Below the pieces are notes generated by a model. The model had not been told where the DNA came from. It searched no databases and was given only the letters and a program-made list of their open reading frames with translations. Below are positions 17,975 to 45,781 of a DNA stretch of 64,000 bases, piece by piece. The stretch lies in assembly GCA_963790305.1 (NCBI GenBank), contig CAWBOC010000009.1, positions 928,001-992,000 on the forward strand, written 5' to 3'. A program made the position numbers and the translations under genes. Numbering within the stretch: the first letter of the stretch is position 1; the number at the start of each line of letters is the position of its first letter. This DNA comes from an uncultured Gemmatimonadaceae bacterium (lineage in GTDB: Bacteria > Gemmatimonadota > Gemmatimonadetes > Gemmatimonadales > Gemmatimonadaceae).

Positions 17975-17996
17975 AAAAAGACCCTCCATGAGGCTC

Positions 17997-18415: not shown

Positions 18416-18443
18416 GAGGCCCCGGACCGTAGCCCGGGGCCTC
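18416..18443 (-). terminator. Hairpin downstream of the second adhesin gene, paralog of 15496-15531
   Basis: GAGGCCCCGG-accgtagc-CCGGGGCCTC, followed on the minus strand by a T-run (AAAAA at about 18406-18410). Confidence 0.65.
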
Positions 18444-18466
18444 CGTGTTGTGCCTGCTGAAAGGGT

Positions 18467-21648: not shown

Positions 21649-21670
21649 GAATCTCCGAAAGCTGCGCACA

Positions 21671-21762
21671 CTTCGGCGGCTCGACTGGCGTGGCGCACGT
21701 GTGTGCGCGGTAGCCTCGGAGCTTTGCGTCACCGCCTTTCGACGGGTTTGCCTTTGTCGCTA
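21671..21762 (-). promoter_or_regulatory. Cyclic di-GMP-I (GEMM) riboswitch
   Basis: The minus strand reads ACAAAGGCAAACCCGTC-GAAA-GGCGGTGACGCAAAGCTCCGAGGCTAC...GCCAGTCGAGCCGCCGAAG, ending about 20 nt before ATG 21648. Confidence 0.85.
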
Positions 21763-24831: not shown

Positions 24832-25743
24832 CTAACGCGCCGCAACCAGCGACGCCGGCTCGGCCGGGCGCATCTCCTGGCGGGGAGGAGCCGGCCAATG
24901 CTGGCTCATCCACTCGGCCGCGGCGCCGACCACGAACTGCTGATGGTCGAGGCCAGTGAAGAGGTGGTCCGCGTCGGGGAGATACTCGACGCGCAGCTGG
25001 TCACGGAAGTCCACCGACCGGAACGCGGCGCGATACTGTGCGCGGTGGTTGAAGTGCTCTCCCTGACCGCCAGAGAACACGTTGAAGAAACGCACCCCAC
25101 GCTGAAGGAGCGTCCGCAGGTCGGCTGCGACCACGTCACGTGGCGGAAACACACGTCGATACTCGGGCGTGACGGCATCAGCGTCCGGACGAGCCGGAGC
25201 GGTGCCTTCCATGTCGGACCCGCGAACAACCCCGGCGAGCTTCCGGCGGAGCCAGTGCTTCCAGACGGACAGCTTGAGCACGCGGTTGCCGTAGTGACGC
25301 ACCCAATAGCCCAGGGTTCGATATGCCCACGCATCGAGCTGCACCATCCCCACGATCCGGGAGTCCGCTCCCGCCACCTTGAACGACATGTCGGCGCCCG
25401 AGCAAAGACCCATGAGCACGAACTCTCGCGCCCCTCTGGTGGCGGTGAGGTAGTCCATCGCCTCCTGCACATCGAGCACGGCGCTCTTCTCGAAGGGAAG
25501 GGTCTCACGACGCGCATCGCTGTCCCCGATCCCCGAATGATCAAAACGCATCACGGTGTAGCCGGCGGGTGCAAGCGCGCGCGCCAGCTTCACATGAATC
25601 CGACACGCTCCGACGTGATGCAGGATTCCGGAATTCAACATGATGACCGCCGGGCTGGTGTCGCGGTTCGCCGCATTCGACGCTTCCGTGACAATGCCAA
25701 CCAGGGACTTTGTCTTCCCGAACCGAACCGCTTTCTCCCTCAT
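24832..25743 (-). CDS. Alpha/beta hydrolase, exosortase-A-associated hydrolase 1-like (Cys nucleophile)
   Basis: ATGA overlap at 25740-25743; RFDHSGIGDS, GLCSGA elbow and ADHLFT. Confidence 0.75.
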   Translation of the reverse strand: MREKAVRFGKTKSLVGIVTEASNAANRDTSPAVIMLNSGILHHVGACRIHVKLARALAPAGYTVMRFDHSGIGDSDARRETLPFEKSAVLDVQEAMDYLTATRGAREFVLMGLCSGADMSFKVAGADSRIVGMVQLDAWAYRTLGYWVRHYGNRVLKLSVWKHWLRRKLAGVVRGSDMEGTAPARPDADAVTPEYRRVFPPRDVVAADLRTLLQRGVRFFNVFSGGQGEHFNHRAQYRAAFRSVDFRDQLRVEYLPDADHLFTGLDHQQFVVGAAAEWMSQHWPAPPRQEMRPAEPASLVAAR

Positions 25744-27053
25744 GTCTTGCGCTCCTCGAGCGGTGGACGCCGCGTCGCCGCCACGGCGGGCGGTGGCCAA
25801 TGCCGGCGTATTTCGTCGGCGAAGGCAGCAGCGACCAGCTGGTTGCCGCGCGCGCTCAGGTGCACCCAACTGACCAGCACATCACGATCCTGATCGAGAC
25901 GGCCGATCACATCGGCGTATGCCACGTGGTTGGTGCGCGCCCATTCATTCAAGCGATCCATGAGAATGGCATGCGCCAGAAAGGTGAGCTCCTGGGGCGT
26001 CATCTTCTCATTCGCGCGCAGCCGTGCTTCGATTTGCGCGCGCTCCTGCCCATACGTCATTCCTTTCAGCGTCTGCCGTCCCACCGACTGCGAGTTCCGT
26101 TGCTGGGACGCAACCACGAACACAATGCCACGCTTCTTACACTCTTCGTTAATGAGTGAAAGGTGGCTCAGAAAATCCTTGGCAATTGCTTCGGAATGGG
26201 TGGCCACCACCTCCGGCGAGTGAGCGCGGTGCCACGGATTGTCCAGGAAATTGGCGATGAACGCGACCGTGAGCACGCGGCCGCCCACCATGCCTGCCAC
26301 CTTGCGGACGGCGCTCTGTTGCGTAAGCGCCTCCTCGAGGTGCATCGCATCGTTGTTGCCTTCGTAGAACGTGATGACATCCGGATTAAGGGGCAGCGCT
26401 TCATTGATCAGCAGCGCGTGTATGTTGGCCACCGTCAAATGCGGGATGCCGAGATTGATCACTTCAATGCTGTCACCGGGCAAGGATTCGTTCAACAGCT
26501 TTTCGAGATACACCGGATAGGTTTCGTCATCGCGCGCGAAATAGCCGAGCGTCGAAGATGCGCCGAGCGTGACCACGCGAATGGTGTGGGGCGCCTTCTT
26601 CTCGCTGAACTCACGTCCACGAAATCCTTTGCTGTTGATCGTCACCGGGAAGCGTTCACCGGTTTCGACATCGAAGTCGAAGCGCGATTGATTGGGATAG
26701 TACTTGGAATAACCACCCGCGACCGCATTCTGGTGTTGCTCGACCGAGCGAGTCGTCCACTGCGCCCGCTTGGAGGCCGCCAGATAGTGCTTCGCTTCCT
26801 TCTGTTGCGAAGTGTCCACCACCGCGGGCGCCTGCTGATCGGTCGGGTCAACCGAGTGACGGGCGAACCCCGTCCCGTACAGCAATACACTCGGCCCGAC
26901 GATCGTGGAGAAGTAAACCCGCACGGCCAGCTCGATCAGAGCGAACACGAACAGGCACAACACGAACGAAAACAAGACGCGCTTGCCACGGCCCAGTTGA
27001 CGATCCTGTTGCATTGAATCAGCCTCGGGGGTTGGGGCGGGGTGGTCTGACAT
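25740..27053 (-). CDS. Membrane-anchored SGNH/GDSL hydrolase family protein (alternative start 27071)
   Basis: N-terminal TM helix; INSKGFRG, LGASSTLG, EVINLGIP, EGNND and WVHLS. Confidence 0.8.
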   Translation of the reverse strand: MSDHPAPTPEADSMQQDRQLGRGKRVLFSFVLCLFVFALIELAVRVYFSTIVGPSVLLYGTGFARHSVDPTDQQAPAVVDTSQQKEAKHYLAASKRAQWTTRSVEQHQNAVAGGYSKYYPNQSRFDFDVETGERFPVTINSKGFRGREFSEKKAPHTIRVVTLGASSTLGYFARDDETYPVYLEKLLNESLPGDSIEVINLGIPHLTVANIHALLINEALPLNPDVITFYEGNNDAMHLEEALTQQSAVRKVAGMVGGRVLTVAFIANFLDNPWHRAHSPEVVATHSEAIAKDFLSHLSLINEECKKRGIVFVVASQQRNSQSVGRQTLKGMTYGQERAQIEARLRANEKMTPQELTFLAHAILMDRLNEWARTNHVAYADVIGRLDQDRDVLVSWVHLSARGNQLVAAAFADEIRRHWPPPAVAATRRPPLEERKT

Positions 27054-27054
27054 C

Positions 27055-27837
27055 TCAGGCAACATTCGCATCGGTTAGCGACGCGACGATGCCCTGGATG
27101 ATCGATTGCGGGAGCAGCGCCGATCCGAAGCGGTCGATCTCGTCCCAGTTCCCCGCACTCGGAATGTGGCGGTAGGTCATGGCGACCCGACGACCCGCCA
27201 GCGCATCCCGGAAGGCCACGAACTCGGGACGCTCTTCGGACACCGTCATGATCACGCGACCGCTTGCGGGAGCAGGCAGGCGTCGAAGGTCGATTCCTTC
27301 CAATCCCTCGCGCATGCGGCTCGTGAGCGGGAAGCCCTTGATGCCGATCGTGCCTAACGTTCCGCCGCGACGTCCCGCGGCATCCGCCTGTTCCGTCAGC
27401 ACCATCTTTTCGACGTACGCCTTGCCGGCGACCACCGGATCCCACAGCACGATGCGGTCGAGATCCTTTCGCTCCCCCGCAACCGCGGCGGCGAGCGAGG
27501 CACCGACGCGCAGGCCAACGAGCGACACCTTGCTCACCCCTGCCGTATCCTTCAGCTCGTCGATCGCCGTCGAGATGTCGTGCGTCCAACGCGCCACATC
27601 GCCAGCGTCACTCTCGCCGGCGGAATCACCGGTCCCGAAGTAATCGAAGCGAAGCACCGAAAACCCGGCCTTGCTGAGCAGCATGGCCAGCTGTCTGAAC
27701 GCGCGGTGCGCGCGCATGTACTCCTGCCAGAGCGGATAGCAGAGAACGACCGCGGTGGGCCGGGCCGTTTGCGCTCTGGGCGGATGGTAGACGCCGTACA
27801 GCGGCTGCTTCGAGTTGCCGAAGAAAAACGGATTCAT
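27055..27837 (-). CDS. Alpha/beta hydrolase, exosortase-A-associated hydrolase 2-like
   Basis: EYMRAHR, RFDYFGTGDSAG, GLRVGA elbow (Arg at the nucleophile position) and LWDPVV.G. Confidence 0.75.
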   Translation of the reverse strand: MNPFFFGNSKQPLYGVYHPPRAQTARPTAVVLCYPLWQEYMRAHRAFRQLAMLLSKAGFSVLRFDYFGTGDSAGESDAGDVARWTHDISTAIDELKDTAGVSKVSLVGLRVGASLAAAVAGERKDLDRIVLWDPVVAGKAYVEKMVLTEQADAAGRRGGTLGTIGIKGFPLTSRMREGLEGIDLRRLPAPASGRVIMTVSEERPEFVAFRDALAGRRVAMTYRHIPSAGNWDEIDRFGSALLPQSIIQGIVASLTDANVA

Positions 27838-30800
27838 CTATCCTCGTGAGGCGGACTTGAAGGCGCTCAGGAACCGCTGGCGCAGTCCCTGCGGCGCCTG
27901 CGCTGACTCGGTCTGCTCAGTGGGCGCAGGCGTCGCCTGCGCTCGCACCGCTCCCGCCTTCTGCTCGCACTCGGCGGCCAGCTGTTCCAGCGTGAGCAGG
28001 TTGAGCGCGGACTGATTGACACGGACACCCGTCTGCTTGGCAATGCGCGTAATGACACGCATCGCGAGCAGCGAGTGGCCACCGGCGTCGAGAAAATTGT
28101 CGTGCACGCTCACCCGCGGGACGCCGAGCAACTCCTGCCAGATCGTGGCGACGGTGCGCTCCATCGGTGTGCGGGGCGCGACGTAGTCGTCCCCGGCCCC
28201 GAAGGGGTTGGGCAGCGCGGCGCGATCGATCTTCCCATCGCTGGTCAGCGGCAGCTCGTCGAGCTCGACGAAGTGCTGCGGCACCATGTCCTCCGGAAGC
28301 CGTTCGCGGAGGAAGCGTCGCAGCTCACTCACCGTGGCGTGCGTACTCTCCTCGTAAATCACGTACGCCGCCATTTGGCGCGTACCCGCCCGCTCCCCGT
28401 GCGAGAGCACGATCCCCTGACGCACCGCCTCGTGGGTGGCGAGCACCGCCTCGATCTCGGCGAGGTTCGCCGTCGATTCCTGAGGCTCCGCTCCTGGAGC
28501 GGCCTTCGGTGCGCGCACGTGATCGAGATAGCGTCCCAGATCCTGCGGGGAAACGACGATCTGCAATGGCATCGCCCCGGCCAGCGCGCGCCGGAATACC
28601 TCGACGCCCTCGGCCGGAGTGATCGCGTCCTCGAGCGACATCGCCGGAGTGGCATCCTCCGCTGGAGTGTCGACATGAATGACGGGCTTGCGATCCTCGG
28701 TCGAATCGCTCGCCATGCGTCCCTTGTCGCTCACCCGCATCATCACGAACTCCTCGATCTCGACCACCGCCTGGCCGTTCTCGTCGAGAATCGACACGTC
28801 GAATGCGGCAATGTCCTTGTCGTCGCTCGGGATGTAGCGAATGTGACTGAAGCAGCCCTGCGGAATCGTCCCCCGCGCGCGAAGCCGCGTATACGACGCG
28901 GGCACGTAGAAGTCCGCGTGCGGATCGAAGCCGTGAATGAGCTGCTGCGCACACGCGGTCGCGACGTCCAGCATCGCGGGGTGCAGCGCAAACCGCGCGA
29001 GGTCGTCCGCGAATTCCTCCGGAAGCTCCAGCGTCGCGATCGCCTCGTCGACTCCATAGTTGATGCGCCGAATGTTGCTCCAGCGCTTGCCCAGCACGAG
29101 GTGCTCGCGCTCCTCGGTGCCGGTGAACCGCTGCTCGCGGGCCGCGCAGCGAGCGATCACCGCATTCACATCGACGCGCGGAGGCGCATCGCCGTTGGCG
29201 GGCAGGGCGATCGCGCGTGCGTGCTCGTGCCATTCGCGGCTCCCATCCGCCGCAACGCCCTCGCCAATGATCACGATCTCCGACTCGCCGCCGTTGCGAC
29301 GAACCTTCACCCGGAGCTCGCGACGCTCATCCGCATGCACGACGAACGGTGAGATGAAGAAAACATCGCGAAGCTCGAGATCGCGGACGTTTCCGGCTTC
29401 GCGAAATGCCGCCTGCGCAAGCTCGAGATAGCCAGTGCCGGGGATGAGCGCTTCCCCGCCCCGAATCCGGTGGCCGTCGAGCAGCCAATGATCCGCGATG
29501 CTGAAGACGGTCGAGAACACGTCCTCCTTCGCGGTGCGGCGCACGCGCCGGTCGAGGAGCGGATGCTCCGCTGGCTCGTCGACCTCGCCCGCCGACCCCA
29601 TCGACGCCGCCATACCGACGTCACGCCACATGCTCCAGTTGATCGCGATCGCCGGCGTCCCATCGAGCGTAGCCTTCCGGTGCGCGAACGCATCCAGGAA
29701 AGCGTTCGCCGCCACGTAATCGACCTGGCCCGCGGGACCGGCAACCGCTCCGCGCGACGAGAACACGACGAAGAAATCGAGCTCGAAGCCGGCGACGGCG
29801 GCGTCGAGGGACAGTGTTCCCTCGACCTTCGGCGCGAGCACGCGCTCGGCGGTCGCGCGATCCTTCGTCGCGATGAGACCATCGTCGAGCGCACCGGCGC
29901 CGTGGACGACGCCGTTGATCGGTCCGAAGCGATCGACGGCGGTGCGGACGATCTCAGCCATCCGCTCGCGATCGGTGACATCCCCGCGCGCCACCATTAC
30001 CTCGGCGCCGAGCGCTTCGAGCGAGCGCACCTGCGCGATAGCGCGGCTCACACGGTCATTCTCGCCGCGACGGGCGATCCAGCCGTCCCACTCTTCGCGC
30101 GCTGGAAACGCACTGCGACCAACGAGCACCAGCCGAGCCTTCGCCGCACGCGCAAGGTACTCAGCGACTGTGAGTCCGATGCCGCCCAGACCGCCGGTGA
30201 TGAGATAGACACCGCCATCGCGCACGCGACTGGGCCGCGTGCTCGGATCGACCGCGACTGACTCGAACGTCTGCACCCAGCGGTCGGCGCCGCGGAGAGC
30301 CACCACCTCATCGGTGACCGGAGAGCCGACCTCGCCAATGAGCTGCTGCACGAGCTGTCGCTCCCGCCAGGAACCTGACGGTGGCAGCACGACATCAATG
30401 GATCGCGAGCGAACGTTAGGCATTTCCTGCGCAATCACCTTGCACGGACCCAGGAGTTGCGCTTTCTCCGGCGTAAGGACTGCTTCGCCAGCAACCTGCT
30501 GCATGTCGCTCGATACGACGCTCAGGCGGATCGGATGCGACAGATCCTCCGCGATCACCCCTTGGGCGAGGTAGAGCAGGCTGTAGAAGGAAAGGTCGCG
30601 CACGTGCCCGGAGGACAGCACTGCCCCCGGCGGCGTGACACTGAAACAGTGCACGATGTCGGCAGGCGCGACTTTCTCCGCCGCGAGATCACGGAACAGC
30701 ATCTCATAGGCTTCGCGGTCGGCCGGCGCGATCGTGAAATCGCGCTCGCCGATGCGCGCATACGTGCTTCCCGTCGCGACGGTCCACACGTCCCGGCCCG

Positions 30801-33663
30801 CGGCGCGCATGCCTTCCGCGACTTTCGCCCCGAGCCCGCCGGCGTCGGCAAAGAGAAGCACCGGACCCATGTCGGGCGACGTGACGATCGCGGACGGCGT
30901 CGTGCGCCGCCACGAAGGTTGATACAGCCACTGCGCAACGTCGGCGCGCTTCCGCGGCGGTCCATCCTCGGCGACCACACTCGATACACCCTTGCCGGGC
31001 GCAATCCAGTGACGGTGGCGCTCGAACGGATACGTCGGCAGCGGGATTCGACGACGGCGGTCTTCGCCATGGAGAGCAGGCCAATCAACCTCGACACCAT
31101 GCGTCCACAGTCGGCCTAGCGCGCCCAGCGCAAAGGCGACATCGGAGACCTGTTCGTCGGGGTGCCGCATCGACGGGTAGATCCCGTGCGATGCCTGCTT
31201 TGCCGAGTGCTGGCGAGCGAGCGTCGTCAGGGTGCGACCTGGGCCGACTTCGAGCAGCACACGCCGCGGATCGGCGAGAAGCTCGCCGACGCCGTCAGCG
31301 AAGCGGACCGTCTGCCGAAGGTGCCGAACCCAGTAGCTCGGGTCGGTCGCATCGGCGTCGGTGATCCACGTGCCGGTCACATTGGATACGAAGGGCATCT
31401 TCGGCGCACGGAGCGCAATGCCGCGCACGAACGCGCCGAACTCCTGGAGAATCGGCTCCAGCATCGCCGAATGCGCCGCGACATTGATGTGGATGCGGCG
31501 GCAGTCGATCTCCTGCGCGGCGAGCGTGCGCTCCAGCGTCTCGATCGCCCTCACCGGTCCCGATGCGACGCACAGCTCGGGCGCGTTCACCGCCGCGATC
31601 GACAGGTCGGGCGGGAGCATCGGACGCAGCTCTTCGGCGGCAAGCGGAACGCTCAGCATGCCACCCTCGGCGAGCCGCTCGAACAGGCGGCCGCGGATGG
31701 TCACGAGAGAGAGTCCCTCCTCGGCCGAGAAGACGCCGGCGAGGCACGCGGCGGTGTATTCGCCCATGCTGTGACCGATCATCGCCTGCGGCTTGATGCC
31801 CCACGACATGAGCAGCTTCGCGAGCGCGAGCTGAGTGCTGAACAGCGCCGGGAGCGCGAGCGATGGACGCTCCAGCTCCAGAGTGGCTTGCTCGGCATCG
31901 TCGAGGAGTGGGAACATCAACGGCGCGAGGTCCACGCCGTACTCCGCCTTCATGAAGGCGAAGCAACGATCGATTTCGGCGCGATACAGCGGCTCAACCG
32001 CGTACAGGTGGGCGCCCATCGTCGCGTGCTGCGCACCGCCGCCGGCGAACATGAACGCCACGGCCGGAGCTTCCTCGCCGGATTGCTGCGTGGCGATGCG
32101 CTTGGGATCGTTGCTCTCGAGCAGCTCGACCGCCTCGGCGGCATCCACGGCGGCGATGGCGCGCCGGTGCGCAAAGGCCTGTCGGCCAACCTGCAGGGTG
32201 TGCGCGACGTCGGCGAGCGAGACATCAGGGCTGTCGCGCAGGAACCGGGCGAGATTCGACGTCGCGGCGTCCAGCGCTGCCGGAGTTTTTGCCGACATCA
32301 CCAGCAGCTGGTACGGCCGCGATGGCTCATCGGAGGGGGCTGCCTTGGGCGCCTCCTCGAGGATGATGTGGGCGTTCGTTCCACCGGCGCCGAGCGCGCT
32401 GACGCCTGCGCGACGCGGGGCGCCAGCTGACGTCCACTCGCGCAGCGCCGTGTTCACGAAGAACGGGCTGCTCTCGAATTCGCAGCCGGGATTCGGCCGC
32501 TCGAAGTACAGGCTCGGCGGGATCTGCTTGTGCTTGAGCGCGAGCACCGTCTTGATGAGGCCCGCGACACCGGCCGCGGTGTCGAGGTGGCCGATGTTGG
32601 ACTTCACCGAGCCGAGGGCGCAGTAGGCCGACTTGCGCGTCTTCGTACGGAACGCCTGCGTGAGCGCGACGATCTCGATCGGGTCGCCCACGGGAGTGCC
32701 CGTGCCGTGCGCCTCGACGTACGTGATCGTTTCCGGATCGACGCCGGAAATCGCGAGCGCCTCGGCCACCGCTTTCGCCTGGCCATCCACGCTCGGCGCG
32801 AGATAGCCGACCTTCATCGAGCCATCGTTGTTGATCGCCGAGCCCTTGATGATCGCGTGGATCGTGTCCCCATCGGCTATCGCATCGACGGCGCGACGCA
32901 GCACGACGACGCCGACGCCGCTGCCGAAGACGGTGCCCTGCGAGCTCTCGTCGAACGAGCGGCAGTGTCCGTCGGGCGAGACGATCTCGCCTTCCTTGTA
33001 GACGTACCCGGCGACGTGCGGCTGCCGGACGGTGGAGCCACCGGCGATCGCCATGTCGCACTCGCCGTTGAGGAGGCTTTGCACGGCCTGATGGATCGCG
33101 ACGAGCGATGTGGAGCATGCCGTCTGCACGTTCACGCTCGGCCCCGTCAGGTTCATCAGGTACGACACGCGCGTGGCGAGGAAATCCTTGTCGTTCCCGG
33201 TATGACGGAGGAGGAAGAACCCGACCTGCTGCACCAGCTGCGGATTGGTCAGCAGGTTGTTGATCATGTACATGCTGGCGCCGCATCCAGCGTACACGCC
33301 GATCGAGCCGTCGAACGTCTGCGGTACGTGGCCGGCGTGCTCCAGCGCGCTCCAGCTGCACTCGATGAAATGCCGCTGCTGCGGATCCATGATCGACGCG
33401 TCCCGCGGGCTGAACCCGAAGAACGTGCCGTCGAACATCTCCATCTCGGGCAGCAGGAATGCAGCCTTGACGTACTCCGGATCGCCGAGGAGCGCCGGAT
33501 CGATGCCCTCGAGCTGCTGGTCGGTGAGCTGCGTGAGCGACTCGACGCCGTCACGCAGGTTGTTCCAGTATTCGGCCAGATCGCGCGCGCCGGGAAAGCG
33601 TCCCGCCATCCCGATGACGGCGATGTCCGTCTCGGCGACCATGATTTCCTTCGTATTCGTCAT
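27838..33663 (-). CDS. Type I polyketide synthase KS-AT-KR(DH inserted)-Asub-carrier; no TE
   Basis: KS: TACSTS, HGTGT, KSNIGHL. AT: GHSMG. KR: GGLGGIG, LDD, YVAAN. DH: HRIRGGEALIP, HPAMLD. AMP-binding C-subdomain: LPLTSDGKIDR. Carrier: GGHSL. Confidence 0.92.
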   Translation of the reverse strand: MTNTKEIMVAETDIAVIGMAGRFPGARDLAEYWNNLRDGVESLTQLTDQQLEGIDPALLGDPEYVKAAFLLPEMEMFDGTFFGFSPRDASIMDPQQRHFIECSWSALEHAGHVPQTFDGSIGVYAGCGASMYMINNLLTNPQLVQQVGFFLLRHTGNDKDFLATRVSYLMNLTGPSVNVQTACSTSLVAIHQAVQSLLNGECDMAIAGGSTVRQPHVAGYVYKEGEIVSPDGHCRSFDESSQGTVFGSGVGVVVLRRAVDAIADGDTIHAIIKGSAINNDGSMKVGYLAPSVDGQAKAVAEALAISGVDPETITYVEAHGTGTPVGDPIEIVALTQAFRTKTRKSAYCALGSVKSNIGHLDTAAGVAGLIKTVLALKHKQIPPSLYFERPNPGCEFESSPFFVNTALREWTSAGAPRRAGVSALGAGGTNAHIILEEAPKAAPSDEPSRPYQLLVMSAKTPAALDAATSNLARFLRDSPDVSLADVAHTLQVGRQAFAHRRAIAAVDAAEAVELLESNDPKRIATQQSGEEAPAVAFMFAGGGAQHATMGAHLYAVEPLYRAEIDRCFAFMKAEYGVDLAPLMFPLLDDAEQATLELERPSLALPALFSTQLALAKLLMSWGIKPQAMIGHSMGEYTAACLAGVFSAEEGLSLVTIRGRLFERLAEGGMLSVPLAAEELRPMLPPDLSIAAVNAPELCVASGPVRAIETLERTLAAQEIDCRRIHINVAAHSAMLEPILQEFGAFVRGIALRAPKMPFVSNVTGTWITDADATDPSYWVRHLRQTVRFADGVGELLADPRRVLLEVGPGRTLTTLARQHSAKQASHGIYPSMRHPDEQVSDVAFALGALGRLWTHGVEVDWPALHGEDRRRRIPLPTYPFERHRHWIAPGKGVSSVVAEDGPPRKRADVAQWLYQPSWRRTTPSAIVTSPDMGPVLLFADAGGLGAKVAEGMRAAGRDVWTVATGSTYARIGERDFTIAPADREAYEMLFRDLAAEKVAPADIVHCFSVTPPGAVLSSGHVRDLSFYSLLYLAQGVIAEDLSHPIRLSVVSSDMQQVAGEAVLTPEKAQLLGPCKVIAQEMPNVRSRSIDVVLPPSGSWRERQLVQQLIGEVGSPVTDEVVALRGADRWVQTFESVAVDPSTRPSRVRDGGVYLITGGLGGIGLTVAEYLARAAKARLVLVGRSAFPAREEWDGWIARRGENDRVSRAIAQVRSLEALGAEVMVARGDVTDRERMAEIVRTAVDRFGPINGVVHGAGALDDGLIATKDRATAERVLAPKVEGTLSLDAAVAGFELDFFVVFSSRGAVAGPAGQVDYVAANAFLDAFAHRKATLDGTPAIAINWSMWRDVGMAASMGSAGEVDEPAEHPLLDRRVRRTAKEDVFSTVFSIADHWLLDGHRIRGGEALIPGTGYLELAQAAFREAGNVRDLELRDVFFISPFVVHADERRELRVKVRRNGGESEIVIIGEGVAADGSREWHEHARAIALPANGDAPPRVDVNAVIARCAAREQRFTGTEEREHLVLGKRWSNIRRINYGVDEAIATLELPEEFADDLARFALHPAMLDVATACAQQLIHGFDPHADFYVPASYTRLRARGTIPQGCFSHIRYIPSDDKDIAAFDVSILDENGQAVVEIEEFVMMRVSDKGRMASDSTEDRKPVIHVDTPAEDATPAMSLEDAITPAEGVEVFRRALAGAMPLQIVVSPQDLGRYLDHVRAPKAAPGAEPQESTANLAEIEAVLATHEAVRQGIVLSHGERAGTRQMAAYVIYEESTHATVSELRRFLRERLPEDMVPQHFVELDELPLTSDGKIDRAALPNPFGAGDDYVAPRTPMERTVATIWQELLGVPRVSVHDNFLDAGGHSLLAMRVITRIAKQTGVRVNQSALNLLTLEQLAAECEQKAGAVRAQATPAPTEQTESAQAPQGLRQRFLSAFKSASRG

Positions 33664-36600: not shown

Positions 36601-39600
36601 CGGCGTGCGCTCGACCTGCGCCTCGAACTGGTGGTGGATGCAAGCGTCCGTCGGAATGACGGTCGTGGTGTCGTTCCACTCCTCGAGCATGACGCGCTGC
36701 TCGGTCCGCGTGAGCACCGGCAGCTGCGACAGGCGCAGCTCCGGATTCGCCGCGACGCCTTCGAGCATCGTGACGAAGTGACCGGCCATGCGCTCGATGG
36801 TCGCCGCATCGAACAGATCGGTGTTGTACTCGAGGTGGCCGGTGTAGCCTGCTTCACCCGCCACGAGCGCCAGCGTGATGTCGAACTTCGCCGCACCCGC
36901 ATCGACGTCGAGCTGGCGAAGGGTGAGCTCCGAGAGCGCGAGCGGCACCAGCGGCGTGTTCTGAAGAATGAAGAGCACCTGGAAGATCGGTGACCGGCTG
37001 AGGTCACGCTCGGGATGCACCGCATCGACGATCCGCTCGAACGGAATGTCCTGGTTCGCGTAGGCACCGAGTGCAGCTTCACGCGTGCGGGTGAGCAGCT
37101 CGCGGAACGTTGGATTGCCGGACAGATCGCCGCGCATCACCAGCGTGTTGACGAAGAACCCGATGAGGTCCTCGACCTCCACTCGACGGCGGCCGGCGAC
37201 CGGCGAGCCGATGATGACGTCGTCCTGTCCCGAGTACCGCCCGAGCAGCGCCTGGAACGACGCGAGCAGCGTCATGAACAGCGTCGCGCCGTCGGTCGCG
37301 CTGACCGTGCGCAAGGCGTCGACGAGCTCGGCCGGCAGCGCGAAGGTGTGGGTCGCGCCGCGGAACGTCTGCACGCTCGGGCGAGGACGATCGGTCGGCA
37401 GATCGAGCTTGGGGAGCGGACCAGCGAGCTGCTTGCCCCAGTACGCAGCCTGTTCGCTCAGCACGTCTTCCTGCAGCCACTCACGCTGCCACTGCGCGTA
37501 GTCCGCGTACTGAATCGGCAGCTCGCTCAGGGGCGACGGCTGGCCGGCAGCGAAGGCCTCATAGAGTGCACCGATCTCGCGGTACAGCACGCCGCGCGAC
37601 CATCCATCGGACACGATGTGGTGCATCGTGAGCACGAGGAGGTGATCGCGCGGGGTGATGCGAACGAGGAGGGCACGGAAAAGCGGCCCGTGCTCGAGAT
37701 CGAAGGGTCGTGCGGCTTCCGCGCGAGTGACGCGGGCGACTTCGGCGTCGATCCCCGCAACGTCGCTGGCGTCGAGATCGCTGATGGAAAGCGCCACATT
37801 GCGCGGCGGCTGCACCATCTGGCCAGGCGTTCCGTCGACTGACGGGAACACCGTGCGGAGTGACTCGTGACGGCGAACGATCTCGCTCAACGAGCGCTGC
37901 AACGCGCCGAGGTCGAGCTCACCCTGCAATCGGATGACCGCCGAAAGATTGTAGGCTGCACTGTCCGGCTCGAGCTGGTTGAGGAGCCACAGCCGCTGCT
38001 GCGCGAACGAGAGCGGAAGCGCGTGATCGCGGGACGCCGCACGAATCGGCGGCATTGCCCGCCCCGCCACCGCGCGGCTCGCTGCCTCGATCGACTCGGC
38101 GAGACGCGCTATCGTGGGGGCCTCGAAGAGGCGGCGCAGCGGGACGTCGACGTTGAACGCCTGGCGAACGCGCGCCATCACGCGCATCCCCATTAGTGAA
38201 TGGCCGCCGAGGGTGAAGAAGTTGTCCTCGACACCGACGCGATCAATACCAAGCACCGACATCCAGATTGCGGCGAGCACCTCTTCGACTGGCGTGCGCG
38301 GTGCGACGAAGCCGGTGCCAAGCTCGAGCGATGAAAGGTCGGGCTCGGGAAGGCGCATGCGGTCGATCTTGCCGTTGGGCGTGCGCGGCAGCGCATCGAG
38401 CGCGACGAACGCCGACGGCACCATGTAGTCCGGGAGCGTCCTGCCGACGAAGCGACGCAGCTCGTCCACCGTAGGCACGGGCGCCGGCGAGTATGCGGCG
38501 ACGATATACGCGACCAGGCGGCGATCGCCGGGTGCGACTTCACGCGACGTCACCACCGCTTCACGAATCGCCGGGTGCGCGCGAATGGCTGCCTCGACTT
38601 CCTCGACCTCGACCCGGAAGCCGCGGATCTTTACCTGGTTGTCGGAGCGCCCGAGGAACTCGATGATTCCGTCCGCGAGCAGGCGCGCGCGGTCGCCGGT
38701 CCGGTAGAGTCGGCCGTTGACCGATTCACTGAATGGATCGGCGATGAACCGCTGCGCCGTGAGCTCCGGCTGATTGAGATACCCGATCGAAACGCCGTCT
38801 CCGGCGATGCACAGCTCACCAGGCACTCCGATCGGAAGCGGACGCAGCTTCGAGTCGAGCACGTAGGCCCGCATGTTCGCGATCGGGCGGCCGATGTGCA
38901 CGATCTTGACGCTGTCCTCGATCACGGCCGGAATCGGATAGACGGTGACGATACCGGTCGTCTCCGTCTGGCCGAACATGTTGATCAGGCGCGCCGGATG
39001 TGCGAACTCGCGCGACCAGATCCGCGGGAGCTCGGAGGGCAGCGGCTCGCTCGCCGTCAGGATCAGTCGCAGCTGATTCTCCAGAACCCTGCGGCGCGCG
39101 TCGGTCGACAACGTGCGAAGCGCCTGAGTGCAATGCTGCCAGTACGAGGGAACGAGATCGATCACCGTCACGCCGCGCGACGCGATAGTCTCGAACAGCG
39201 CAACCGGATCGGCGAGCAGCGCCGGCGAAGCGATCACGATCGTCGCGCCCTGCGTGAGTGGCAGCACGAGCTGCCGCACCGAGGACGAGAACGCCATCGA
39301 GGCGGTGTGGAGGTAGCGATCGCTCGTTGCAATGCCGAGGGCTCCGCGCATCGCCTGCGCATAGTTGCGCAGGTTGCGGTGCGTGACCATGACGCCCTTC
39401 GGCGCACCGGTCGAGCCCGACGTGTAGATGACGTACGCGAGCGAATCGGCGGTCGTGGCGATGCGCGGATCGTCCTCCCGTTCCGAGGCCAGCGCGGTCG
39501 CGTCGTCGAGGCGGATGACCGGCACCTCGATCTCCGGAAGCGCCGAGAGGACGCGCTGCTGCGTGACCATGGCGACGACGCGGGAATCGCCGAGCACGTA

Positions 39601-41268
39601 CGCGTTGCGATCGCGCGGGTACCGCGGATCGAAGGGCACGTACGCCGCGCCAGCCTTCAGGATGCCGAGCACGCCGACGATCATGTCGGGGCCGCGCTCG
39701 ACCGCGAGGCCGACGAGAGCACCCGGCGTTACGCCCGCGGCACACAGGGCATGAGCCAGCTTGTTGGCCCGGCGGTCGAGCTCGCCGTACGATACCACCG
39801 TCCCGTCGAACTCCACGGCCGCGGCATCAGGCGCGTGCGCAGCGTGCTGTGCAATGACCTCGTGAACGAGCGCACCGCTGGTGCGCTCGTGGCGCGTGTC
39901 GTTGTAGTCGATCAGAAGGCGCTGACGCTCCTCGTTCGTGATGAGCGGGAGCTCGCTGAGTGTGCGACCGGGATCGCCTGCCATTCCCTCGAGCAGCGTC
40001 CGCAGATGGCCGACCATTCGGGTGACCGTCGCATCATCGAACCGGTGACGGTCGTACGAGATGCGAAGCAGGACGTCCGGTTCGAGGCTCGCGAAGATCG
40101 ACAGGGGATCGGTCATCTGCTCGATCGACCGCACATCCTGACGACCCCAGCGAGAGCCGAGCATCGCGCGCAGGCCCTGGGTGATTCCCGTTTCGACCAG
40201 CATGAGACTTTCGAAGAGCGGTCGGCCTCGCGGGATCTCCGACCACTCCTGAATCCGCGACAGCGGAGCATGCTCGAACTCGCGAGCGCTGTCCTGCTGA
40301 CGCTGCAGAGCGACGAGCCACTCGAGCAGCGAGCACTCCGGGTCGACGTGCACGCGCAGCGGAACGGGATTCAGAAAGAGGCCAACCATCGAATCTCCGC
40401 CCTCGACCTGTGACCGCGCACGCCCGCGTGCGTCGCCGAAGACGACGTCCGACTCCCCGCTATAGCGGCTGAGCAGAAGCGCCCATGCCCCCTTCACCAT
40501 CGTGTGCAGGGTGAGCCCGTGTCGTTGCGCGAGCGACCGCAGCGCGCTCGTCACGCCCTCCGACAGTCGCAGCTGCTGCTCTCCGAAGTTGCCGTCGGAG
40601 GCGAGCAGCTCGCCTGGCGCTCTCGCCACCATCAGCGGCGTGGGCGCGAGGAACCCACGAAGCAGCTCCGTCCAGTACGTCTCGGCGCGCCCAAGATCCT
40701 GCCGTTGCAGCCAGCCGAGGTAGGACTCGAAGGCGGCCGGCGTGGGGAGCATCGGCGCCTCTCCCTCGACGAGCGCGTCGTAGGCGAGGAAGACCTCACG
40801 CAGGACGATGAGTCGCGAGCGCCCATCGAGCAGCGCGTTGTGCGACGTCCAGACCATCTTCCACTCGCTCTGATCGACGCGGAACATCGCGAGGCGCATC
40901 AGCGGCGCGATCGCGAGGTCGAAGCCGCGACGGCGATCGACGCGCAGGTAGCTCTCGAGGCGGTACTCGTGCTCGGTCGGCGTCAGCCCGCGCCAGTCAT
41001 CGAGCTCGATTGGCAGCGTAACTCCGGCGCCGAGCTCGAGCAGCGGAACCTCGACACCCTCCCACCGGAAGCCACTCCTCAGGACCGCGTGCCGATCCAT
41101 AACTCGTTCCCATGCAAGGCGGAACGAATCGGGTTGCAGGTCGCCGTTGACCGCGAACACGGTCTGCTGAACGAACGCGCCGGACTGCGGCGCATCCAGG
41201 TTGTGCAACAGCATTCCCTGCTGCATCGGCGACAGCCGGTACGCGGTGTCGAGTGTGGTTACGCCCAT
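33660..41268 (-). CDS. Bimodular NRPS C-A-T-C-A(LLM monooxygenase insert)-T, apparent +1 frameshift near 34850
   Basis: C1: SHNALLDG. A1: YTSGSTGAPKG, YRTGD. T1: GGHSL. C2: HHIVSDG. A2: YTSGSTGKPKG, FDISV. The LLM insert has FSLFYF, WTPERHF, AEEWSVVDNISGGR and EIACLIDFG. A2 resumes at THLQCTPS, NMYGPTETT and YRTGD, followed by T2 GGHSL, in ORF 33660-34961. Confidence 0.9.
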
Positions 41269-41564
41269 GTCGCTTACGGTTGAGGCGGGAGACGATTGGT
41301 TTGTGGAACGCCGGCGATCATGCGCGAGAAAGCCACCGATGCCGCGCGCGACGGTTTCGCAAGAACCGAGCGCTCGGCGACCACTGTGTTGGTGGTCGGC
41401 TAAGTCGTTGTCGAGTATAGGGATATCGGCGGTGTTACCACGCTCGAATGCGTGCCACGCGCAGGCCCGTGTGGCGGGTGCGCAACGAGAGCCAATGCCG
41501 CGCAACACCTGATGATGGGGTTCCACACTTCGCGCCTCGCCGCCTCGCGGCGAGGGGTAACGGG

Positions 41565-42872
41565 CTATCGGGCGGAGCGTCCTTCCTCGATCAGCCCGAC
41601 CGCCGGAATCCGCGGGCTCAGGCCGCCCAGATCGGCACCGGACGCGATGGAAACGGGCGCGTCAGACGGCAACGGGCCTGCGACTCCCCGCCGCTCATAA
41701 TTGAAAAAGCGCTTCAAAGCCAGAAAATGCTTCTCGAAGAGATGCCAACTGGCGAAGGCGAGGGCGTAGGAGATGCCAATTCCGGCTAGCAGTACGCCGA
41801 CCTGTGCCGGTAGCTGCGAGCCGAGGACGGTCGGAAGCTTCCCGTCCAGCTGCGTCAGCTGCCCGTGGAAGACGTTGCGGACGACGATGTGGATCAGATA
41901 CAGCGCATAGCTGTACCGGCCGAACGCGGCGAGTGTCGCCGAGCTCAGCACCCGCGCCGTCCGTGAGGAATCCGGAGCCGCTATCGCTCGCACCAGGAGC
42001 GCGCCGAAAAGAAGGGAAATCGGCGTGTACGCTCCCAGCTGGACTCGAACATCGAGCGGGGGGAGGATCCCGCCAACGGCGACCAGCGTCCACCCGATGA
42101 CGATGGCGAGCCAGACTGCAGCACCGAGCATCACCGGCCGCGAGAAGCGGAGCAGCATTGCCGCACCGGAGGGGTCTCGTGCGAGCACCGCTACGAGCGC
42201 CCCAACCGCGAGCGCGTCAATCCGAGCCGGCATCAGCGCGTAACCCGCGATGCCATCCGCAGCCGAATAGTGGAGGCCGAGGCGCGTCAGCTCGGCAAAT
42301 ACGATCGCACCGACGCAGATCTGAACGAGGCGTCGTCGACTCGCGAAGAAAACGATGAGCGGCCAGAGCAGGTAGAACTGCTCTTCGATCGCGAGAGACC
42401 AGAGATGGGTCGTGTGACCCGGCATGCCCTCCCAACCGACTCTCGCGAACATGACGTTGCTGAGGTACGTCCAGAGCCAGAACTGCGTCCCGGCGGGGAC
42501 CGCGGTCGCCGGGCGTACCATTGGGAGCAGGATGAGCACGAACACGAGAAACGCGTAGTACAGCGGGAAGATTCGGAGCACCCGCCGCATGTAGAAATTG
42601 CGGAAGAAGTGCGCGCCGCCCTTCGCGTCGTACAGGATTCCCGTGATGAGGAAGCCGGAGAGGACGAAAAAGAGGTCGACCCCCACCCACCCCACCCTCG
42701 TGACCTCGAAGAAAACGAGCTCAGCGCCGGTCACCGCATTCACGAGTGTGAAGTGGAGGACCATCACGCAGAGGACGGCGATGCCCCGCATTCCATCGAG
42801 CACGGGGATGTGAGGGCGAGTAACGCGGGCCGAAAACGCGTTCGCCGACTCGGATCGGAGAGGAGCCGTCAT
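41565..42872 (-). CDS. Acyltransferase family 3 (OafA-like)
   Basis: LDGMRG, GVDLFFVLSGFLIT, FYMRRVLRIFPLYY, HLWSLAIEEQFY and SYALYLIH; ATGA overlap with the PPTase gene. Confidence 0.92.
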   Translation of the reverse strand: MTAPLRSESANAFSARVTRPHIPVLDGMRGIAVLCVMVLHFTLVNAVTGAELVFFEVTRVGWVGVDLFFVLSGFLITGILYDAKGGAHFFRNFYMRRVLRIFPLYYAFLVFVLILLPMVRPATAVPAGTQFWLWTYLSNVMFARVGWEGMPGHTTHLWSLAIEEQFYLLWPLIVFFASRRRLVQICVGAIVFAELTRLGLHYSAADGIAGYALMPARIDALAVGALVAVLARDPSGAAMLLRFSRPVMLGAAVWLAIVIGWTLVAVGGILPPLDVRVQLGAYTPISLLFGALLVRAIAAPDSSRTARVLSSATLAAFGRYSYALYLIHIVVRNVFHGQLTQLDGKLPTVLGSQLPAQVGVLLAGIGISYALAFASWHLFEKHFLALKRFFNYERRGVAGPLPSDAPVSIASGADLGGLSPRIPAVGLIEEGRSAR

Positions 42873-43690
42873 TGAGTGGTGCCTTCGGTCCATCGCCACG
42901 AGAAAAGCCGGCCGACTGGACCGTTGATCGCCACCGCACCCAGGTATCCGTTGGCGGGAAGCAATTCATAGAGGTTCCACCCAGACGCCTCTCGCGGCTC
43001 CTCGAGCGAGGGAAGATCCGCCGGCACCGCCGACAGCATCGTGTCGAAGCCACTCAAGGCGACGGAGAGGTCACCCCCGGTCGCTTTCGCGTACGATTCC
43101 TTTCGCGTCCAGCACCGGTAGAACGCGTCGCGCCTGGCTGTGTTTTCCAGCGTGCGCAGCGTTTCGCGCTCGCGAGACGTGAAGTAGCTCTCGACGATCG
43201 AATCGAGCTCGGAGATCGGCCGCACACGCTCGACGTCCACGCCGATCTCGCGACCGAGCGTGACGGCGATCAGCGCCATGTCTTCGGTGTGCGACAGGTT
43301 GAAGCGCAGGGCCGTGGGCCCGCTCTCATCGGACAGCGCCGGCTTGCCGTTCTTGCCGATCGTGAACCGCAACAACCGCGGGTCAGTCTTGCGGTATCCG
43401 GCGAGCACGCGACGAAGAATGCCGTGCGCCACGACGTACCGCCGCCGGTCGCCCTCGCTGCGAAACCGCTCCGCCCGGTTGAGCTCCTGGAGCGACAGCA
43501 GCGACTCGAGGGTACGCACGCTCGCAGCCGGCTGCTGGAGGGACGCCGCCCACACGTGGACTTCGTCCACTTTCAGCGTCGGCCGCACTCGCGGCACCGG
43601 CCACAGCAGCGCCTCGGTGGGCGTTATCTGCTCAGCGGACGTGTGCAGCATGGACGTCGGCCGGGGTGGCAGGGTCGGAGGCGCGCGCAT
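42869..43690 (-). CDS. Sfp-type 4'-phosphopantetheinyl transferase
   Basis: GKP, FNLSH, IGVDVE and WTRKESYAKA; GGAGG RBS upstream. Confidence 0.92.
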   Translation of the reverse strand: MRAPPTLPPRPTSMLHTSAEQITPTEALLWPVPRVRPTLKVDEVHVWAASLQQPAASVRTLESLLSLQELNRAERFRSEGDRRRYVVAHGILRRVLAGYRKTDPRLLRFTIGKNGKPALSDESGPTALRFNLSHTEDMALIAVTLGREIGVDVERVRPISELDSIVESYFTSRERETLRTLENTARRDAFYRCWTRKESYAKATGGDLSVALSGFDTMLSAVPADLPSLEEPREASGWNLYELLPANGYLGAVAINGPVGRLFSWRWTEGTTQ

Positions 43691-44888
43691 CCGCCTCCTC
43701 CCTGCGATCGAGTGAGGTTGGTGAGACTTCCAGGCCGCGAACCCATCGCGCGAGCAGCTCGCGCTCCCGCAGCGACAGAAAGCGATGCGTGGGAAGCGTC
43801 ACGAGGGTACGTCGCAGCGCGCGAGCGCCGGGATGCTCCCGCTCGCCGACGCAGAGGTGGGCCCGGAGCTCCCCCTGCTCCATCAGTGTCAGCGGGTACC
43901 CGCTCGACATCCCGAGGCGCGGATCGATCGGTCGACCGAGTTTGTTGCGCACCGCAGCCCGGAGATAGCCACTCTCTCCACCCGCGAGGACCCGTACGGG
44001 CTCGATGCCGCGGCTTCGCTCGGCACCCACCGTCATTGCTGCCGCATTCCGACGCCGGAGGTTTGCCTCGGCGTCCTCATAGGCGAGCGCGTCGCGCACT
44101 AGCACAGCGGCCGCGCGGGAGAGAGAAGATGGCTCGTGCGCTGGATGATAGACCATCTCGCCGAGGTGGAGCATCGGGAGACTGGCGGGCAGCGCGTAGA
44201 GTGAGGGTCGCCCGAGCAGCCACTGCGCGGTGGCGACGGCCGCATCGGACCAGCCTCGCGGCGGATCGCCGAGTCGGAGCGCCGCGGCGCGCTCAGCGAG
44301 CGCCGTGTCACGGAGCAGCAATGCGCCGCCTCGACCGCCTGTGATTCCCTTCCCCCGTCCGAAGCTGAGGATGGACAGCGGTGCGAGCGCGCCGAGCCGG
44401 GTGCCGTCGAGCGTTCCGCCGGTGCCCTGGGCTGCGTCCTCGATCACGCTCACGCCAGCCTCGGCCGCGATGCGCGCCACGCCCGGCACATCGGCTGGGT
44501 AGCCGTAGAAGTGGGCGACGACGATAGCGTCCACGCCGCGCGACACGGTGCGGGCCACCGATTCGAGATCGGGGCTCAACGTGGCCGGATCGACGTCGTA
44601 GAGGCGAGCACGAACGCCGGCGAAGATCGCCGCGGCAGTGAGATCGATGCAGCCGTAGGCCGGAAGCGCGACCGTGCCGCCTGCACCGGCCGTTAGGCGC
44701 ATCGCCAGCACCAGCGCCGACGTGCCGCTGTCGGTGAGCGCGACGGCCGCCGCGCCGAATCGTCCCGCCAGCGTCGTCGTGACTTCGGCATGAGCGCGAT
44801 CGCCGGCGACGACGGCGCCGCCCATCGCCCTAACGAGGGCGAGGGGCCGGATGGGCGAATGAACCGGCGGCTGCCGTCGACCGATCAC
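43632..44888 (-). CDS. DegT/DnrJ/EryC1/StrS family PLP-dependent protein
   Basis: TDSGTSAL, HFYGYP, IEDAAQ and SFGRGK; GTGA overlap at 44885-44888. Confidence 0.8.
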   Translation of the reverse strand: MIGRRQPPVHSPIRPLALVRAMGGAVVAGDRAHAEVTTTLAGRFGAAAVALTDSGTSALVLAMRLTAGAGGTVALPAYGCIDLTAAAIFAGVRARLYDVDPATLSPDLESVARTVSRGVDAIVVAHFYGYPADVPGVARIAAEAGVSVIEDAAQGTGGTLDGTRLGALAPLSILSFGRGKGITGGRGGALLLRDTALAERAAALRLGDPPRGWSDAAVATAQWLLGRPSLYALPASLPMLHLGEMVYHPAHEPSSLSRAAAVLVRDALAYEDAEANLRRRNAAAMTVGAERSRGIEPVRVLAGGESGYLRAAVRNKLGRPIDPRLGMSSGYPLTLMEQGELRAHLCVGEREHPGARALRRTLVTLPTHRFLSLRERELLARWVRGLEVSPTSLDRREEADARASDPATPADVHAAHVR

Positions 44889-45781
44889 GCCGTCGCGACC
44901 CCGATGCCGCGCGACGAACGCGGGGTAAGATCGCGCCACTCACATCGACGCGCCGCCGACGTGAACCGGAAATCGCCGAGCAGCCGCTCGAGCCGCGCGT
45001 GCGTTCCGGCGATTCCGCGATAGTGGCGGAGCCCCGTCACCCACGAGACGGGCAATCGCGGCTGCGCGTCGTCGAGCTCCCAGGGGTGGATGTAGAACGT
45101 CCCGGTCCGCCCTTCCTGCTGACATTGCCGAAAGGCGTGACGGGTAAGGGCGTACGGGAATTGGCGGAAGTATCCGCCACCCGCGGCGGGAATTTGCAGG
45201 CCGCCGATTCGCGCCGTGGTGAGCGGAAACTCGACGATGACGCCGGAGGGGGTCGACCTCAGGTGGGGCGAAGTCGGCGCGGCTGGATAGCCGTATCCCG
45301 GTCGGCGAATTGGGAAGAGGCTGGAGTCGTACCGATAGCCTTCCTCGAGCAGGACCTCGAAGGCCCACTCCAGGCCGGGCACGATCGAGAAGCTCGGTGC
45401 GCGAAAACCCTGAACGAGCTGCCCGGAGATGTCCTCGAGCAGGCGTCGCGAATCACGCACGTCGGCGCGAAACTGCTCGGGTGAAAGAGTGCCGACCCGG
45501 CGATGCCACCAGCCGTGGGAGGCGATCTCGTGACCGGCATTGGCGATCCGACGAACGATCCTCGGATTCGCCTCGGCGATCCAGCCGAGACAAAAGAAGG
45601 TGCCCGTCGTGGCGTGCCGGTCGAGAAGGGTCAGTATCGCATCTACCCCAATGTCGACGCGCGACGCGTACGAAGGCCAATCCCGTCGCGATACCACTCC
45701 CTCGAACGCGTTGACCTGGAAGTACTCCTCCACGTCAACCGAGAAGATGTGCGGATGAGGAGCGGGATCGGATCGAGGCAT
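44885..45781 (-). CDS. XrtA-system polysaccharide deacetylase (DUF3473)
   Basis: FSVDVEEYFQV, HEIASHG..H, GFRAPSFSI, YDSSLFP, GGGYFR and FYIHPWE. Confidence 0.9.
   Translation of the reverse strand: MPRSDPAPHPHIFSVDVEEYFQVNAFEGVVSRRDWPSYASRVDIGVDAILTLLDRHATTGTFFCLGWIAEANPRIVRRIANAGHEIASHGWWHRRVGTLSPEQFRADVRDSRRLLEDISGQLVQGFRAPSFSIVPGLEWAFEVLLEEGYRYDSSLFPIRRPGYGYPAAPTSPHLRSTPSGVIVEFPLTTARIGGLQIPAAGGGYFRQFPYALTRHAFRQCQQEGRTGTFYIHPWELDDAQPRLPVSWVTGLRHYRGIAGTHARLERLLGDFRFTSAARRCEWRDLTPRSSRGIGVATA

Follow-up and report, generated by a model that had tools for sequence, protein, structure and literature searches.

Carrier-dependent aminoacylation of envelope glycopolymers is carried out by systems such as Dlt (DltA/C/B/D) and AlmEFG, in which one unmodified amino acid is moved. 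A different gene set, associated with exosortase A (XrtA), combines the TIGR03098 ligase, an acyl carrier protein (ACP), the TIGR03099 decarboxylase and the hydrolases 2 and 1 (TIGR03101 and TIGR03100). In the accessible parts of two reports, a four-gene unit consisting of a nonribosomal peptide synthetase (NRPS), a polyketide synthase (PKS), a glycosyltransferase (GT) and a phosphopantetheinyl transferase (PPTase) is described as conserved in 28 of 57 Roseobacter genomes, with an unknown product (PMC4337385; PMC5014874). Here we analyse a stretch of 64,000 nucleotides (the window; contig CAWBOC010000009.1, positions 928,001 to 992,000) from an uncultured Gemmatimonadaceae bacterium, where a hybrid NRPS-PKS line lies within a polysaccharide locus (Table 1). 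By its sequence, the line is related to the orphan Roseobacter NRPS/PKS cluster, of which it represents a variant lacking the thioesterase. The gene context suggests that its product is attached to the polysaccharide, a reading to which we assign a probability of about 0.55.

The genome carrying the window is referred to as G000 and its contigs as C9 and C5; other sampled genomes are given as G numbers and fetched loci as L numbers. The polysaccharide locus covers ~69 kb (C9, 905-974 kb), extends past the window and is of the Wzx/Wzy type. It contains wzc, wza, wzy, wzx, GT2 and GT4 genes, four CE4 and four SGNH genes and one carbamoyltransferase gene. Upstream of the window it continues with two GT4 and two GT2 genes, the carbamoyltransferase, the initiating transferase, Wza and Wzc. 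The components that together mark a Wzx/Wzy-dependent locus (initiating transferase, GTs, Wzx, Wzy, Wzc/Wzz and Wza) are present, and the only initiating sugar transferase of the genome is inside this NRPS-PKS-bearing locus. The eleven genes from the deacetylase to the PF07786/AT3 acyltransferase follow each other on the minus strand as listed in an earlier note on this DNA, including the four-base start/stop overlaps at 44885, 42869, 33660 and 25740. The PKS stop and the hydrolase 2 start are directly adjacent (27838/27837). Coupling is nevertheless incomplete, because a gap of 297 bases separates AT3 from the likely NRPS start. A promoter and terminator scan gave a signal no better than chance. 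The absence of thioesterase and reductase was correctly observed: a domain search finds neither in either megasynthase, and the four PF00975 matches in the genome are all on other contigs. The PPTase is the sole one of the Sfp/HetI type found in the genome by profile search.

The PKS is followed by relatives of hydrolases 2 and 1. All 17 aligned homologues of hydrolase 1 retain Cys114 and His260, and most of them Asp137. Hydrolase 2 has an invariant Arg110 at the nucleophile position and no conserved C-terminal His. Hydrolase 1 is thus the probable unloading enzyme and hydrolase 2 a probable pseudo-enzyme partner. Structure models of the two proteins (pLDDT 85 and 89) form α/β-hydrolase folds; fold searches with the models returned only generic esterase/lipase folds at 12-21% identity, and an Atlas search only unnamed α/β-hydrolase clusters. 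The Cys-nucleophile thioesterases ObiF and SulM perform non-hydrolytic release, according to the part of the source available (PMC10510592), a precedent that fits transfer by hydrolase 1 without proving it.

TIGR03101 matches are found in 26 of 251 Gemmatimonadota genomes, none above cut-off, and these include 10 of the 11 genomes with a luciferase-like monooxygenase (LLM) of the type found in the NRPS. Of 36 such matches, 20 were fetched with their loci. In 13 of these, hydrolase 2 comes directly after the final carrier of an NRPS/PKS without thioesterase, the architecture of which varies (one case is a T-hydrolase 2 fusion and two are near-duplicates in G249). One gene intervenes between carrier and pair in another, and in the remaining six a fused or adjacent pair lies by a stand-alone ACP/acyl-CoA-dehydrogenase/DUF1839 cassette, called by Pfam in L051 and L053 and by size and order elsewhere. 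The order ACP, acyl-CoA dehydrogenase-like protein, unknown protein, DUF1839, GH2-like 836-aa protein and fused hydrolase 2/1 (L053:4160-10558, L059, L060, L063, L023, L051) represents a third carrier source for the pair. A Pseudomonadota sample contains 31 canonical TIGR03100 loci; in every one of the 12 fetched, the pair is immediately preceded by an ACP-like gene. Hydrolase 2 was recognised in 10 of the 12 and a ligase was in view in 9, and TIGR03098 and TIGR03099 were above cut-off in the two of each that were scanned. A cis thioesterase and the pair never end the same line in any locus examined. Among 12 metagenome lines with this PKS type, eight have a thioesterase, two the pair and none both. 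Since the pair follows the last carrier as it follows a stand-alone ACP, and excludes a cis thioesterase, it likely unloads the line. Here an SGNH gene separates hydrolases 2 and 1, which is not the case in G004/G008.

The earlier note had proposed that a megasynthase replaces the simple ligase and ACP. The last carrier does occupy the slot filled by the ACP in the 12 canonical loci, and the exclusion between pair and thioesterase agrees with the idea, but the genome retains a stand-alone ligase-ACP cassette elsewhere. A general rule that thioesterase-less lines use the pair was rejected on the basis of G622 (stand-alone thioesterase), the Deinococcus line (terminal C domain) and G021 (no pair in the 3 kb left on the contig).

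PKS relatives at 88-92% identity come from Gemmatimonadaceae metagenome-assembled genomes. At 45% identity over 1749 aa, the PKS also resembles that of Ruegeria conchae, which sits within the Roseobacter NRPS/PKS/GT/PPTase unit. Six plasmid matches, hand-picked from the top 40 (two from Ruegeria and one each from Aminobacter, Shinella, Paracoccus and Deinococcus), are all found among polysaccharide genes. In Pseudomonadota, TIGR04020 detects the LLM in 27 of 401 genomes; 26 of the 28 matches were examined with 15-20 kb of sequence, two at contig starts being omitted. A KS-AT-KR-DH PKS is present in 21 of these 26 loci, with at least one glycan-family gene beside 19 and at least two beside 16 of the 21, compared to none of the five LLM loci of other kinds. 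The 11 A-embedded LLM inserts of Gemmatimonadota (11 of 251 genomes) lie beside glycan genes in eight cases and not in one, the complete genome G282; two contigs are too short. Among metagenome contigs, of which the best 80 of 577 confirmed ones were used, the 12 loci with this PKS type have glycan genes in six and none in four, two being unjudgeable. The LLM-interrupted A domain alone was rejected as a glycan-locus marker, as only 12 of 31 judgeable metagenome loci without this PKS have a glycan gene. In G000 outside the locus, 33 of 410 windows of 10 kb contain one glycan gene and 12 of 410 contain two; the co-occurrence far exceeds this one-genome background. Most homologues therefore have polysaccharide genes nearby, contrary to the situation that the earlier note named as refuting its idea, yet G014, G018, G282, G622, L034/L035, L135 and L143 are exceptions. 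In G282 (L061, L072/L073), the LLM NRPS is located ~2 Mb from the matching PKS and pair, neither of them by glycan genes.

A number of observations weigh against attachment to the polysaccharide. Thioesterase-bearing lines without glycan genes occur in G018, L034/L035, L143 and L135, with an EamA transporter gene in L034 and L143. The thioesterase-less lines of G014 (both flanks inspected) and G282, and that of G622 with its stand-alone thioesterase, have no glycan neighbours either, and G282 additionally encodes a large PKS-NRPS that ends in the pair. G021 has the same PKS end and no pair within the remaining 3 kb of its contig. Of the 21 Pseudomonadota lines, 20 carry a cis thioesterase, the usual function of which is to release the product in free form, and glycan genes accompany just 6 of the 10 judgeable metagenome lines. 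Many of the positives are close kin with one common four-gene cassette and are not independent; the background derives from one genome, the glycan profiles were seeded from these same loci, and the flanks are short. Finally, polysaccharide loci that have no NRPS commonly contain AT3, SGNH and CE4 genes too.

Alternatively, the line may make a free small molecule, such as an oxidised acyl-glycine-ketide acid, amide or lactone acting as a signal, chelator or cross-linker. It would be merely co-regulated with the polysaccharide, and the pair would be a general split thioesterase. We consider this unlikely, although it is the strongest competitor. An ordinary Ser-type thioesterase ends most relatives. 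The pair also terminates large PKS-NRPS lines (G282, L209/L208/L080/L050), around which ~70 kb were inspected without a glycan gene, as well as the line of G014, and some relatives that lack glycan genes are bordered by EamA or ABC/FtsX transporter genes. However, the locus contains no dedicated exporter, and in Gemmatimonadota, Pseudomonadota and Deinococcus alike, lines of this kind are found time and again inside polysaccharide loci. In Deinococcus, the terminal domain is of the condensation type, which transfers and does not hydrolyse.

It is also conceivable, but improbable, that the acceptor is not the polysaccharide but a different envelope component, which the locus encodes or modifies. 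Candidates would be glycolipids, lipid anchors and the surface proteins with Ig-like repeats, or glycans carried by these. Ig-like repeat genes adjoin the line here and in G002, G003, G004, G008, G067, G197 and G249, PMT_2-type transferase genes flank L034/L035 and G186, and exosortase-like genes are found in related loci of G186 and G249. On the other hand, Wzx comes directly after hydrolase 1 here and in G004, G008 and G486, and a profile search of the 94%-complete genome gives no match to the exosortase family PF09721. Only two loose PEP motifs were found in the genome in the search for PEP-CTERM proteins, neither with a membrane tail. Hydrolases 1 and 2 score 91.6 of 168.45 and 104 of 202.75 bits required by TIGR03100 and TIGR03101, respectively. 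The description of the locus as exosortase-A-type thus holds by homology only, with the CE4 protein above the TIGR03006 cut-off but no exosortase and both hydrolases below theirs. The best TIGR03098 ligase match (342 bits, cut-off 592) is on another contig, within a hexapeptide-transferase/dehydrogenase/ligase/ACP cassette. At L219:4276-8078 (C5, 530-534 kb), a hexapeptide transferase-acyl-CoA dehydrogenase-acyl ligase-ACP operon has no glycan genes in view.

The NRPS is broken into two overlapping frames within the second A domain, just past the LLM insert. Two separate NRPS genes were considered and rejected, as G004, G005, G007 and G008 of the same genus have a single frame of ~2530 aa. The extra base is absent in six of six covering contigs from four public runs, which represent other strains. 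Genome-wide, 154 split-like neighbouring pairs are found among 1996 open reading frames with a paralogue, AsnB and the carbamoyltransferase included, a count that has no clean-genome comparison. Because the base is missing from all covering contigs, the relatives are intact and the assembly is rich in split pairs, the frameshift is very probably an assembly error. That it is real and the line dead in this organism, which would be compatible with the other readings as they concern the family, is improbable as well: the frame is broken in the sole sequence of this strain and no same-strain run was found (best share of words 0.19), but besides the split pairs and the six contigs, one of which is a piece of 370 bases that differs in five other letters, both NRPS pieces still have 92-96% amino-acid identity to intact orthologues at only 57-72% identity of fourfold sites. 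Measured alongside the fourfold sites, amino-acid identity is 93-94%, a sign of conservation. AsnB (2957-4910), an acyl-CoA dehydrogenase (56078-57049) and an Xaa-Pro peptidase (57761-58801) are also split or truncated, consistent with frequent indel errors. The three Ig-like repeat proteins (15554-21732), one with a polysaccharide-lyase-like domain, are matched in G004/G008 by a single 1252-aa protein; assembly errors or a rearrangement may account for the separate pieces here.

The NRPS has the order C1-A1-T1-C2-A2(LLM)-T2. The C1 motif HNALLDG is missing the second, catalytic His, in contrast to HHIVSDG in C2. Read by eye, A1 has no Asp at the α-amine-binding position and has an Arg at 239, so that its substrate is probably an acid without an amino group. 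In G186, an A1 of this type precedes the LLM module as a stand-alone unit. A search with the A1 region returned intact orthologues of 2530-2535 aa and no characterised domain that names the starter. A2 is predicted to select glycine, and all 79 distinct LLM-interrupted A domains that could be parsed read DILQxGMxWK (unparsed ones uncounted).

The nearest solved relative of the LLM insert is the PuwE domain (6ket, E 8.7e-143). An interrupted A domain of the MtaG type is reported to hydroxylate the glycine Cα. This fits better for many LLM-A modules, since no KS follows them. In the accessible parts of the respective sources, MupA hydroxylates the α-carbon of a carrier-bound β-keto thioester (PMC10953402), and a 2-hydroxy acyl product is proposed for the PuwE monooxygenase domain (PMC4219810). 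The oxygen could be placed on either the glycine α-carbon or the α-carbon of a β-keto thioester. In the X-Gly(oxidised)-ketide product suggested previously, glycine agrees with the predicted A2 code but is only one of these two candidate sites of oxidation.

The PKS has the motifs of a hybrid-type KS (NDKD) and a B-type KR (LDD) as well as the DH His and Asp motifs. The tail of the protein matches the last C-A-T module of G002/G003 at 53-55% identity and their PKS ACP at 43-44%. In a quick carrier tree (83 columns), the tail falls into a group of 22 carriers (SH-aLRT 94, unstarred) that holds 17 of the 19 carriers preceding hydrolase 2. The terminal Asub-T is apparently the relic of a deleted third glycine-type C-A-T module, whose carrier was retained beside the hydrolase pair. 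The fused PKS-Asub-T form is common among homologues (PF13193 in many homologue matches). Fourfold-site identity to G004 (L032, L014, L013) is 0.57-0.60 for the NRPS and PKS (27838-41268) and 0.36-0.46 for the flanking PPTase, AT3, hydrolases, wzx and ALDH. As it exceeds that of all flanking genes tested, an in-place exchange seems to have affected the two megasynthase genes at a later time than the genes around them.

We propose that the line forms a dedicated thiotemplate branch of the Wzx/Wzy polysaccharide pathway. The PPTase would prime the three carriers, all of which have carrier motifs. A1 would load a non-amino starter acid, with C1 probably idle, A2 would load glycine, and C2 would form R-CO-Gly. 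The PKS would add one malonate-type unit, reduce it and possibly dehydrate it, and the LLM would add an oxygen to the glycine α-carbon or, as in MupA, to that of the β-keto thioester. The product would be a short oxidised 4-acylamino-butanoyl or -butenoyl group on the terminal carrier derived from the deleted module. Hydrolase 1 would take this group onto Cys114, with the catalytically dead hydrolase 2 as a docking or structural partner; gene order, fusions and the exclusion with thioesterases point to these roles. From there, the acyl group would go to the glycan. The simplest acceptor would be an amine, which either the CE4 deacetylase would expose in the cytoplasm or the DegT-like enzyme would form, with the transfer taking place ahead of flipping by Wzx. 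Alternatively, it may be delivered by an AT3/SGNH relay. Hydropathy indicates membrane segments in AT3 and SGNH and none in CE4, the DegT-like protein and both hydrolases, so both acylation of the lipid-linked repeat in the cytoplasm and the relay are possible.

Table 1 Features of the NRPS-PKS line and the neighbouring polysaccharide genes; positions refer to the window.
Feature	Position	Strand	Basis
XrtA-type CE4 polysaccharide deacetylase, without membrane segment	44885..45781	-	TIGR03006 334.6 bits (cut-off 276.2), hydropathy
DegT-like pyridoxal phosphate (PLP) protein	43632..44888	-	PF01041, residues 55-222 only
Sfp/HetI-type PPTase	42869..43651	-	profile match
AT3 (OafA-type) membrane acyltransferase, no fused SGNH	41565..42872	-	PF01757; 7 hydrophobic segments
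NRPS first piece: C1-A1-T1-C2-A2 N-part-LLM insert	34840..41268	-	domain/motif matches
MupA/PuwE-family LLM inside glycine-type A2	34912..35931	-	TIGR04020 534.5 bits (cut-off 244.45)
One extra base splitting the NRPS frame	34852..34852		public-run contigs, intact relatives
NRPS second piece: remainder of A2, Asub, T2	33660..34847	-	domain matches, intact relatives
Single-module PKS, KS-AT-KR-DH-Asub-T	27838..33663	-	domains, motifs, homology
Asub and terminal carrier (apparent relic)	27973..28458	-	tail identity, carrier tree
Hydrolase 2-like α/β-hydrolase fold	27055..27837	-	profile, alignment, structure model
SGNH/GDSL protein, one N-terminal membrane segment	25740..27071	-	profile, hydropathy
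Hydrolase 1-like α/β-hydrolase	24832..25743	-	profile, alignment, structure model
Wzx flippase	23263..24801	-	PF01943/PF13440
HGSNAT_cat (PF07786)/AT3-like membrane acyltransferase	22069..23250	-	profile
Other polysaccharide genes: CE4 x2, FemAB-like, split AsnB, GT4, Wzy, GT2, SGNH x2, GNAT, three Ig-like repeat proteins	439..21732		profiles

The DegT-like protein has EDAAQG and SFGRGK motifs in its N-terminal PLP region and a divergent C-terminus; its gene is accompanied by CE4 and FemAB-like genes in the related loci L066, L069, L070 and L058. Related LLM modules also adjoin hexapeptide transferases, MBOAT and SGNH pairs, and DegT/sugar-dehydratase genes. In L127, L128, L129, L132-L134 and L136, the gene directly after a Formyl-A(LLM)-T NRPS encodes a ~224-aa protein, which Pfam identifies in L127 as a hexapeptide-repeat transferase; neither a PKS nor a thioesterase is present. 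A stand-alone LLM lies directly after DegT and sugar-dehydratase genes in L146, L147, L151 and L160. The carbamoyltransferase and an SxtJ-like gene upstream of the window (L043:7247-9662; C9, 915-918 kb) recur in the polysaccharide loci L047, L130, L145 and L218. A saxitoxin pathway was rejected as their context, as no other genes of that pathway were seen in the locus. In L113 and L124 a carbamoyltransferase is fused to an LLM-glycine module, and so formyl, acyl and carbamoyl groups appear to be alternative glycine caps.

More broadly, and more tentatively than for this locus, multi-module NRPS-PKS lines may serve a widespread route, not yet described, by supplying oxidised acyl-glycine-ketide groups that are interchangeable. 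A portable cassette of carrier, dead Arg hydrolase and Cys hydrolase would graft them onto Wzx/Wzy polysaccharides. On this view, the Roseobacter cluster and the XrtA hydrolases 1/2 would belong to one and the same chemistry of glycan decoration, which might equip the polymer with a reactive group (enoyl or hemiaminal) through which it cross-links or adheres. If true, this would give a function to two unexplained gene sets, the orphan cluster and the exosortase-associated hydrolases, and account for the lack of a reported free product from the former. Thiotemplate enzymology would gain a two-protein release mechanism, and assembly-line products would serve as polysaccharide substituents. In a literature search that left subscription journals largely outside its coverage, we found no publication giving a product or a glycan role to the NRPS/PKS family or to hydrolases 1/2; the accessible main text of Haft 2006 does not mention these hydrolases.

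Individual components have precedents in other systems. Hydrolase 1 resembles ObiF and SulM in the replacement of Ser by Cys, but those are, in the portion of the source at hand, cis type I thioesterases that form strained rings (PMC10510592), whereas hydrolase 1 is a stand-alone protein from another α/β-hydrolase branch with a dead partner. The LLM belongs to the same family as MupA and PuwE, for which the available source parts describe carrier-dependent α-hydroxylation as shown and as proposed, respectively. By the same partial account, MupA needs a β-keto acyl-ACP and acts in trans, while the LLM sits here in a glycine A domain. The proposed pathway parallels Dlt and Alm in the succession of adenylation, carrier and, as suggested by the genes, transfer to an envelope glycan, and MBOAT and SGNH genes occur in related loci. 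It is nevertheless not a member of these systems, as it uses a multi-module NRPS-PKS with oxidation and extension, and an α/β-hydrolase pair.

With the XrtA set, the locus shares the order carrier-hydrolase 2-hydrolase 1, the Arg and Cys elbows and the polysaccharide context. It differs in scores below both hydrolase cut-offs, in the elbow GLCSG instead of GLCD[AG]A, and in a carrier that is within the megasynthase, with no ligase, decarboxylase or exosortase in the locus. The Roseobacter cluster has in common the LLM-interrupted glycine-type A domain, the homologous KS-AT-KR-DH PKS, the PPTase and the polysaccharide-gene surroundings. In the present line, however, an extra C-A-T starter module takes the place of the formyltransferase in capping the glycine, a cis thioesterase is absent, no GT2 gene separates the synthases, and the Asub-PCP relic serves as the last carrier, followed by the hydrolase 2/1 pair. 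As uncharacterised gene sets, the parts were known before; the locus itself is a variant of the Roseobacter-type cluster.

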